Origin: Escherichia coli
Lineage (GTDB): Bacteria; Pseudomonadota; Gammaproteobacteria; Enterobacterales; Enterobacteriaceae
Length of the DNA: 575 bases
NCBI RefSeq assembly: GCF_003334385.1
Contig: NZ_QOWN01000164.1
Direction: 5' to 3' (one strand)
The notes below the pieces were generated by a model that was given only the letters and a program-made list of their open reading frames with translations, did no database searches and was not told the DNA's origin. This document shows, piece after piece, positions 219 through 509 of the stretch. How positions within the stretch are numbered: position 1 is the stretch's first letter; the number at the start of each line of letters is the position of its first letter. The position numbers and the translations under genes were made by a program.

Positions 219-509
219 TTACAGCATTGTGCCCGGTTCGGGTTGTGTGTCTGTCATATCCGTCACCGGTGGCTCCGGCTGAATATCACCATTTTCCGTG
301 GTGACATCTTCCGCCTGTGGTTCCGGAAGCAGTTCCGGGGATGGTTCCGGCTGTGCACCAAGCAATTCATCCAGAATTGAATCCACTTCTGCATCAAGAC
401 GCGCCTCAAGGTTCTGCCGAAGTTGCTGTTTCAGTGCGCTCCGGACTTCTTCAGAGCGCAGGACTTCCTTCACTGCCTCAGCAGTGACCAGCGATTTTAT
501 TTCTGACAT
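219..509 (-). CDS. Hypothetical small acidic protein (96 aa): helical N-terminal half, Pro/Glu-rich low-complexity C-terminal tail with QPEP repeats; function unknown
   Basis: Complete ORF with ATG at 509..507 and TAA at 221..219. Codon usage is enteric-like (CTG, GAA, CCG). The terminator directly downstream supports this strand. The overlapping plus-strand ORF translates to Ser/Cys/Arg-rich nonsense typical of an antisense frame. By my count there are 22 acidic and 7 basic residues, and all 10 prolines fall in residues 54-92. I do not recognise the family. Confidence 0.8.
   Translation of the reverse strand: MSEIKSLVTAEAVKEVLRSEEVRSALKQQLRQNLEARLDAEVDSILDELLGAQPEPSPELLPEPQAEDVTTENGDIQPEPPVTDMTDTQPEPGTML

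Follow-up and report, generated by a model that had tools for sequence, protein, structure and literature searches.

QP[ED] repeats in the length-variable acidic tail of a DUF826 protein encoded by Escherichia coli prophages

The locus analysed here raises the question of what short nucleotide repeats mean inside a small protein-coding gene of an Escherichia coli prophage. The repeats encode QPEP motifs in the acidic C-terminal tail of the product. A first-pass annotation had put forward that, being in frame, they could let the tail vary in length by slippage or recombination, and that the tail might be a flexible spacer or else an interaction surface under diversifying pressure. Are the repeats a property of the DNA or of the peptide, do they really change the length of the tail, and what kind of selection does the tail experience? 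These points were examined in the window (that is, the whole 575-nt stretch of DNA that was analysed) and in homologues of the encoded protein.

The DUF826 gene in its prophage setting

As judged from the sequence and the list of ORFs, all genes in the window lie on the minus strand (Table 1). The setting is that of a lambdoid, Stx-type E. coli prophage, in which the DUF826 gene is located between the DUF1378 gene and the pinholin S gene. The ORF at 219-509 is 100% identical to the prophage copy in E. coli G1/2 (RefSeq CDS WP_032222302.1, named 'DUF826 domain-containing protein'), where the order is tRNAs, TerB, DUF3927, SASA esterase (NanS-p type), DUF1378, DUF826, holin, endolysin and Rz. 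Over its whole length the window shows 98% identity to phage PhiR5_1 and 86% identity to phage 933W, whose corresponding gene, L0106, is found downstream of stx2 and nanS-p. The DUF1378 gene, which is both called and annotated in loci L083 and L091, sits 25 nt upstream of the DUF826 start, and its translation reads as a small membrane protein. On the other side, the pinholin begins with MYQMEK and has two candidate start codons, ATG at 143 and ATG at 134, three codons apart and in frame. This double ATG resembles the dual-start holin/antiholin arrangement of P21-type pinholins.

The terminator-like hairpin between the two genes begins 10 nt past the DUF826 stop and has a folding energy of -29.1 kcal/mol (z -4.0). 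It was kept in all 17 of the distinct intergenic sequences examined (17/17), stem changes included. Such a hairpin could protect the lysis genes from read-through in lysogens, in the style of a moron cassette.

Table 1. Features of the 575-nt window, with coordinates in the window.
Feature	Position	Strand	Basis or remark
Class II (P21 S-type) pinholin gene, 5′ part	1..143	minus	annotated holin in L001, L002 and L091; PF04971 on called genes
Terminator-like hairpin (209..181) and T-run	171..209	minus	between DUF826 stop and holin start; 12-pair stem followed by TTTTGTTGTTG
DUF826 gene, 96 aa and stop	219..509	minus	stop codon 221..219; ORF list, profile matches
Acidic Pro/Glu/Gln-rich, predicted disordered tail, residues 52-96	222..356	minus	model, composition, divergence
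C-terminal motif QPEPGTML, residues 89-96, including QPEP copy 3 (234-245)	222..245	minus	motif conservation
Position equivalent to the 36-nt deletion between QPE copies 2 and 3	237..272	minus	P0036 compared with P0149
QPEP copy 2, residues 77-80	270..281	minus	core Q-P-E conserved, fourth residue variable
Tandem array of four 12-nt (4-residue) units, QPEP-SPEL-LPEP-QAED, residues 53-68	306..353	minus	repeat family D1 and PE positions
N-terminal helical domain, residues 1-51, ending at invariant G51	357..509	minus	conservation, dN/dS, AlphaFold2
DUF1378 gene, 3′ end	535..575	minus	stop codon 537..535; gene call and annotation in L083 and L091; translation

The 96-aa ORF is a full member of Pfam DUF826 / PHROG 311. 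Residues 1-57 match positions 1-59 of the 75 positions of the Pfam model PF05696 (E 2.4e-28, score 98.5), a match that leaves the repeat-bearing part of the tail uncovered, and phrog_311 matches the ORF over its full length (E 6.6e-37). In comparison with the known members from lambdoid and Stx prophages of E. coli and Shigella, such as 933W L0106, the gene position is the same and nothing essential differs. The ORF is a real, selected coding gene and not a chance ORF: dN/dS over the N-terminal domain is 0.02-0.37, relatives at about 35-47% identity share the start and the domain, and the gene order is conserved. Among 5.8 billion proteins searched, homologues formed 101 clusters, almost exclusively from E. 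coli or Shigella, and a profile run against 1.84 billion cluster representatives yielded no more than 61 matches, indicating that the family is small. Of 5,426 complete E. coli genomes, 983 (about 18%) carry the gene, in a median of 2 copies and at most 7.

Searches with the protein gave a chance match only in NCBIfam (E 0.055), a best E of only 0.6 in profile searches of PDB sequences and nothing in the PADLOC search for defence systems, while Rfam returned only sub-threshold chance matches for the window. One paper (PMC10462455) lists the DUF826 ORF as an unknown ORF positioned between nanS-p/DUF1378 and the holin gene, and a literature search on DUF826, DUF1378 and 933W L0106 found no experiment on any DUF826 protein.

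Two names attached to the family were set aside. YnfO of K-12 was considered as a possible DUF826 protein and dropped; the annotation of G1/2 has YlcI/YnfO as a separate family. The label 'head completion protein' given to the gene in PhiR5_1 (L002, 4219-4509) and in related PhiR records is without profile support and looks like an annotation error. As to the start codon, many NCBI records carry a 134-aa form that is longer by 38 residues at the N terminus (MIKGPQRKS...). In another frame, these additional codons run into the 3′ end of DUF1378, and the extension varies between alleles in a frameshift-like manner and is absent from distant relatives as well as from the RefSeq call in G1/2. The 134-aa form is probably wrong, and the ATG at 509 is likely to be the true start.

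Domain, tail and repeated peptide

The protein is divided at G51 into two parts of very different conservation. In an alignment of 16 diverse sequences (A1), 25 of the 51 columns of residues 1-51 are invariant, as against M95 alone in the tail. The 45 residues of the tail include 10 Pro and 11 Asp or Glu, and no Lys or Arg. A single-chain AlphaFold2 model, for which the input was a shallow alignment of 16 sequences, predicted helices at residues 10-17 and 20-50 (block-mean pLDDT 73-92 over residues 11-50) and no secondary structure over residues 51-96 (pLDDT 46-59), with a whole-model pTM of 0.33; in essence the model is a single long helix followed by a tail of low confidence. The tail is thus predicted to be an intrinsically disordered low-complexity region, and the suggestion that it is a flexible spacer fits both its composition and the model.

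The boundary between domain and tail is also visible in comparisons between genomes. Only 33 of the 983 DUF826-carrying E. coli genomes match this allele over the tail at the DNA level, the 96-aa tail type being the less common one, and in the remaining genomes DNA similarity ends at nt 143-168 of the gene, that is, at the domain/tail boundary. Many protein matches in the phage collection likewise end exactly at residue 51. Between allele types, nucleotide identity is 41-69% in the tail, 64-84% in the non-coding spacer, 72-92% in the N-terminal domain and 96-100% in the holin gene, and in most comparisons no other segment of the locus diverges as much as the tail. Locus L026 presents the reverse mosaic, with 99% identity in the tail, 88% in the N-terminal domain and 72% in the holin gene. 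This opposite arrangement indicates that the two halves of the DUF826 gene reassort.

In distant relatives (33-47% identity to P0112 in alignment A2) the N-terminal domain is retained as far as G51, followed by a tail of between 2 and 79 residues. Where long, these tails are likewise acidic, with an abundance of P, Q and E, and have similar C-terminal ends: LQPEPATML, PEPEPATLL, KPEPATILP, PQEPATTL and VQPGTDSAMM. Since relatives with tails of only 2-10 residues exist, the tail is not essential to the DUF826 family as a whole.

Alleles with frameshifted or truncated tails were common: P0048 has 109 members and P0152 was found on 312 contigs, and further cases are P0066, P0068, P0078 and P0095. 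Several such alleles are on contigs as large as a chromosome (4.97-5.5 Mb). Resident prophages can either do without the tail, or the copies concerned are in decay. A different kind of departure was seen in the chimeric ORFs P0098, P0176 and P0177, in which about 38 first residues of the holin (...SQWAA) are joined to DUF826 from about residue 13, which implies that in some strains prophage copies have recombined or been rearranged.

Within the tail, GGCTCCGGCTG at 271-281 and GGTTCCGGCTG at 343-353 are 72 nt apart and encode QPEP at residues 77-80 and 53-56, respectively, of the minus-strand ORF 509..219. A third QPEP occupies residues 89-92 (234-245), and an LPEP residues 61-64 (318-329). 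The coordinates and residue numbers given for these motifs in the first-pass annotation were all correct. The repeat spacing had been put at 12 to 24 codons; intervals of 12 and 24 codons are indeed present, but the actual values are 8, 16, 12 and 24 codons. A repeat search recovered the pair as 270-281 / 342-353 (D3, 11/12 nt), together with a triple of 12-nt period at 309-350 (family D1) whose units are 72-78% alike. In our reading, the D1 triple extends by one codon block on each side to form the four-unit array of Table 1, which takes in both the QPEP copy at 343-353 and the LPEP at 318-329 and which had gone unmentioned before. Tandem Repeats Finder reported no array.

When the 45 codons of the tail were shuffled 20,000 times, a tetrapeptide was present three times over in 0.065% of cases (p about 0.0007), and five or more PE dipeptides in 0.33%. 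That is, at the peptide level the repeat is beyond what chance or composition would give. At the nucleotide level the picture is another one. Under the codon usage of the neighbouring prophage genes, the probability that two copies of QPEP have three or more of their four codons in common is about 0.39, and between copy 2 (CAGCCGGAGCCA) and copy 3 (CAACCCGAACCG) every one of the four third (wobble) positions is different. It follows that the nucleotide repeats are a by-product of the repeated peptide and that no recent DNA duplication is involved.

Length variation and selection in the tail

The homologues fall into ten core length classes (75, 78, 81, 87, 88, 89, 90, 92, 94 and 96 aa), of which 81, 90, 89 and 96 aa are the common ones; the 75-aa class is explained by a deletion in the N-terminal domain, and the tail is not the cause. 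DNA alignment revealed four simple in-frame indel alleles, of 12, 24, 27 and 36 nt, each located between short direct repeats, with 7, 13 and 5 nt of microhomology for the first three, respectively, and an imperfect one of 9 nt for the last. The 12-, 24- and 36-nt indels fall between repeat copies coding for P-E or Q-P-E/D. In the 12-nt case (alleles P0023, P0153 and P0154), one unit of the tandem array has been lost precisely between two copies of CCGGAAC; the deletion allele is on more than 140 contigs, its full-length forms P0153 and P0154 being on 113 and 32 contigs, respectively. The 24-nt indel lies between copies of a perfect 13-nt repeat, CTCAGCCTGACGG, which encodes QPDG in the 89-aa tail type, whereas the 27-nt indel, bounded by two copies of CGGAA, was found in two sequence backgrounds (P0011 and P0151). 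The 36-nt (12-codon) indel falls exactly between the last two QPE copies: P0036 (78 aa), present on 12 contigs and in several NCBI assemblies, corresponds to its undeleted parent P0149 (90 aa) minus SPVVDVTEAQPE. These in-frame indels flanked by short direct repeats make up a slippage-type length polymorphism.

When each of the four deletion junctions was searched for specifically in the 5,426 complete E. coli genomes, none was detected. The deletion alleles are therefore rare; the contigs on which they have been found are all from metagenomes or draft assemblies, several of them independent of one another. Furthermore, among the homologues no recombination was seen between the members of the 72-nt (24-codon) QPEP pair, which share 8 nt of microhomology, and neither was a 24-nt deletion from QPEP copy 1 to LPEP, the pair with the best microhomology of this allele, 9 nt. 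The tail is not a contingency (phase-variable) tandem repeat either: its units are 72-78% alike, its indels are in frame and the junctions are absent from the complete genomes.

The proposal that the tail changes in length by slippage or recombination hinged on its length not being invariant, and it is not: length varies, and indels do occur between direct repeats, so that the proposal is supported in part. The very pair singled out at first, at a distance of 72 nt, was not once seen to recombine. As to indels in multiples of 12 or 24 codons, there is one 12-codon deletion; the main classes (81, 89, 90, 94 and 96 aa) are not related by such multiples. They are separated by complex substitutions and indels, for which slippage alone fails to account.

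A deletion of the same kind was noted outside the tail. P0092, an allele from Shigella boydii found on 172 contigs, has lost six codons (LRSEEV) from within the N-terminal domain, exactly between two copies of GAAGTCC (D5, window 438-467). Deletion bounded by microhomology is therefore general at this locus and not specific to the tail.

Selection was assessed by the Nei-Gojobori method among seven allele types, a tail value being computable in 16 of the 21 pairs. Over residues 1-51, dN/dS was 0.02-0.37, and over the tail it was 0.19-0.62 and never above 1, figures to be read with low power, given 31-46 codons, an uncertain tail alignment and a recombining, mosaic locus. The comparison of tail and N-terminal domain thus gave a higher value for the tail, yet one below 1, which points to relaxed purifying constraint with no sign of diversifying selection. 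Individual positions agree. Of 36 unique CDS, 33 retain Q77, P78 and E79 while the codons vary synonymously; Q89, P90 and M95 are invariant and position 91 is E or D, with codons that again vary synonymously. The last residue of 'QPEP' is unconstrained (S, P, G, T or L; at position 80 S, P or L, usually Ser), so that the conserved unit is QP[ED], and besides it the C-terminal M-L is conserved. Retention of the Q-P-E/D core through synonymous codon changes argues for purifying selection on the motif and, together with the dN/dS values, speaks against the diversifying pressure that had been suggested for the tail.

A proposed three-part protein and the linkage of its gene to NanS-p esterase genes

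The reading that we favour, with a probability of roughly 70%, is that the repeats are part of the disordered acidic tail of a three-part DUF826 protein, that it is the peptide that is selected, and that the microhomologies provided by its codons allow the tail to drift in length. The three parts are the helical N-terminal domain (residues 1-51), a variable spacer, and a C-terminal end composed of Q-P-E/D, a few residues and a hydrophobic M-L/M. The repeated unit is the peptide Q-P-E/D, or more loosely x-P-E-x, kept by selection at the protein level, with the DNA words following from it. As the same short words recur in frame, they serve as microhomologies, at which 4, 8, 9 or 12 codons are occasionally lost or gained, through slippage in replication or through unequal recombination where a genome has several copies of the prophage. 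Such losses and gains let the length of the tail drift, among E. coli alleles, over a range of roughly 27 to 45 residues. The constraint on the spacer is relaxed and still purifying. The division into parts, the conservation, the repeat-bounded indels and the dN/dS values are observations; what is inferred from them is the action of the tail, which would be a flexible, probably polyproline-II-like extended spacer that presents the C-terminal motif to a partner. As such it is an ordinary disordered spacer, and small deletions are the usual behaviour of a region of this type.

It is unlikely that the tail is functionless low-complexity filler, with only the N-terminal domain mattering and the repeats and indels being neutral noise. 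Distant members with tails of 2-10 residues, the frequency of frameshifted or truncated alleles (109 members for P0048 and 312 contigs for P0152, with several in complete genomes) and the relaxed constraint would all be compatible with such filler, but dN/dS remains below 1, Q89 and P90 are invariant, and QPE copy 2 has been kept via synonymous changes. Moreover, relatives whose tails are otherwise unalignable have similar C-terminal ends, and an acidic, proline-rich character is found in all long-tailed subfamilies, the Mu-like one included. The contrary idea, that the tail is an interaction surface under positive selection, for example in an arms race with a factor of the host or of a competing phage, the repeats serving to generate variants, appears quite improbable to us. 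The tail does diverge most in most comparisons, beyond even the adjoining non-coding spacer, the N-terminal and tail modules reassort between prophages, and there are many sequence types and ten length classes. However, the pairwise tail dN/dS of 0.19-0.62 never exceeds 1, admittedly a weak test in a short, recombining region; the high dS of the tail indicates old or exchanged alleles, not adaptive change; and the QP[ED] cores and the C-terminal M-L survive synonymous changes.

A role of the repeats at the DNA or RNA level, either as spaced TTCCGG protein-binding sites on the plus strand or as a phase-variation locus, is close to refuted. TTCCGG does recur with a 12-nt period at 309-350, and the region is upstream of the lysis genes. 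Against this, the DNA words vary in other allele types while the peptide motif is conserved, and neither a Tandem Repeats Finder array, nor an Rfam match, nor a promoter-like site was found; in addition, all indels observed are in frame and rare, whereas contingency loci switch frame at high frequency.

The disordered three-part protein that we favour has parallels in well-known systems. TonB of E. coli has a Pro/Glu-rich extended (Glu-Pro)n segment, and both TonB and procyclin (PARP), with its EP repeats, are like the DUF826 tail in having an acidic, short-period x-P-E-x character without predicted secondary structure; residues 53-92 even give a weak compositional match to Pfam Trypan_PARP (E 0.15). 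There is no homology to either, the DUF826 repeats are few and imperfect (3-5 copies), and the DUF826 protein is taken as cytoplasmic by default, no signal peptide or membrane segment having been noticed. Bacterial SSB and gp2.5 of phage T7 have acidic disordered C-terminal tails whose short hydrophobic tip docks onto partners. By analogy, DUF826 would likewise connect its folded N-terminal domain, through a variable linker of acidic character, to a conserved tip (Q-P-E-x-x-T/M-M-L). In this case too, no relationship in sequence or fold was found in the NCBIfam and PDB-sequence searches, and DUF826 is without a DNA-binding domain.

As for a partner, the neighbourhood of the gene offers a pointer. 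In lambdoid prophages the DUF826 gene comes after a gene for a SASA / NanS-p-type esterase, usually with DUF1378 in between, and the holin gene is next (L091, 3653-6291; L092, L096 and L131). In Mu-like prophages (L094-L130), a backbone unrelated to the lambdoid one, the SASA esterase gene and then the DUF826 gene are located between a gin-type invertase gene and com/mom, and there is no holin gene. An upstream SASA match was obtained in 32 of the 33 Mu-like viral loci (three matches are partial, and one locus is without upstream sequence). A hairpin is present behind the stop of the DUF826 homologue in the Mu-like cassette as well (L094, 4252-4279). One distant relative is followed by a holin of a different family, and the short-tailed relative in L097 has no esterase nearby. 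Together, the two backbones, the hairpins, the differing holin and L097 suggest that DUF826 belongs to a mobile cassette with the esterase rather than being a lysis gene. One could go further and imagine DUF826 as a partner of NanS-p, the two genes moving as one terminator-bounded cassette and the QP[ED] tail and the QPEPxTML tip binding, chaperoning, inhibiting or helping to release the esterase, or binding a host factor, with the length of the spacer tuning the effect; we regard this as a long shot.

A disordered low-complexity tail in which repeated codons permit small in-frame deletions is a textbook case and carries little weight in itself. More relevant for the family, the linkage to NanS-p is the only functional lead for DUF826. 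There are also modest practical consequences. The hypervariable tail of DUF826 can mislead short-read assembly and annotation. On the other hand, the tail could serve as a marker for prophage typing, since the gene is part of the stx / nanS-p / lysis region of Shiga-toxin phages and about 18% of complete E. coli genomes have it, many of them more than once.
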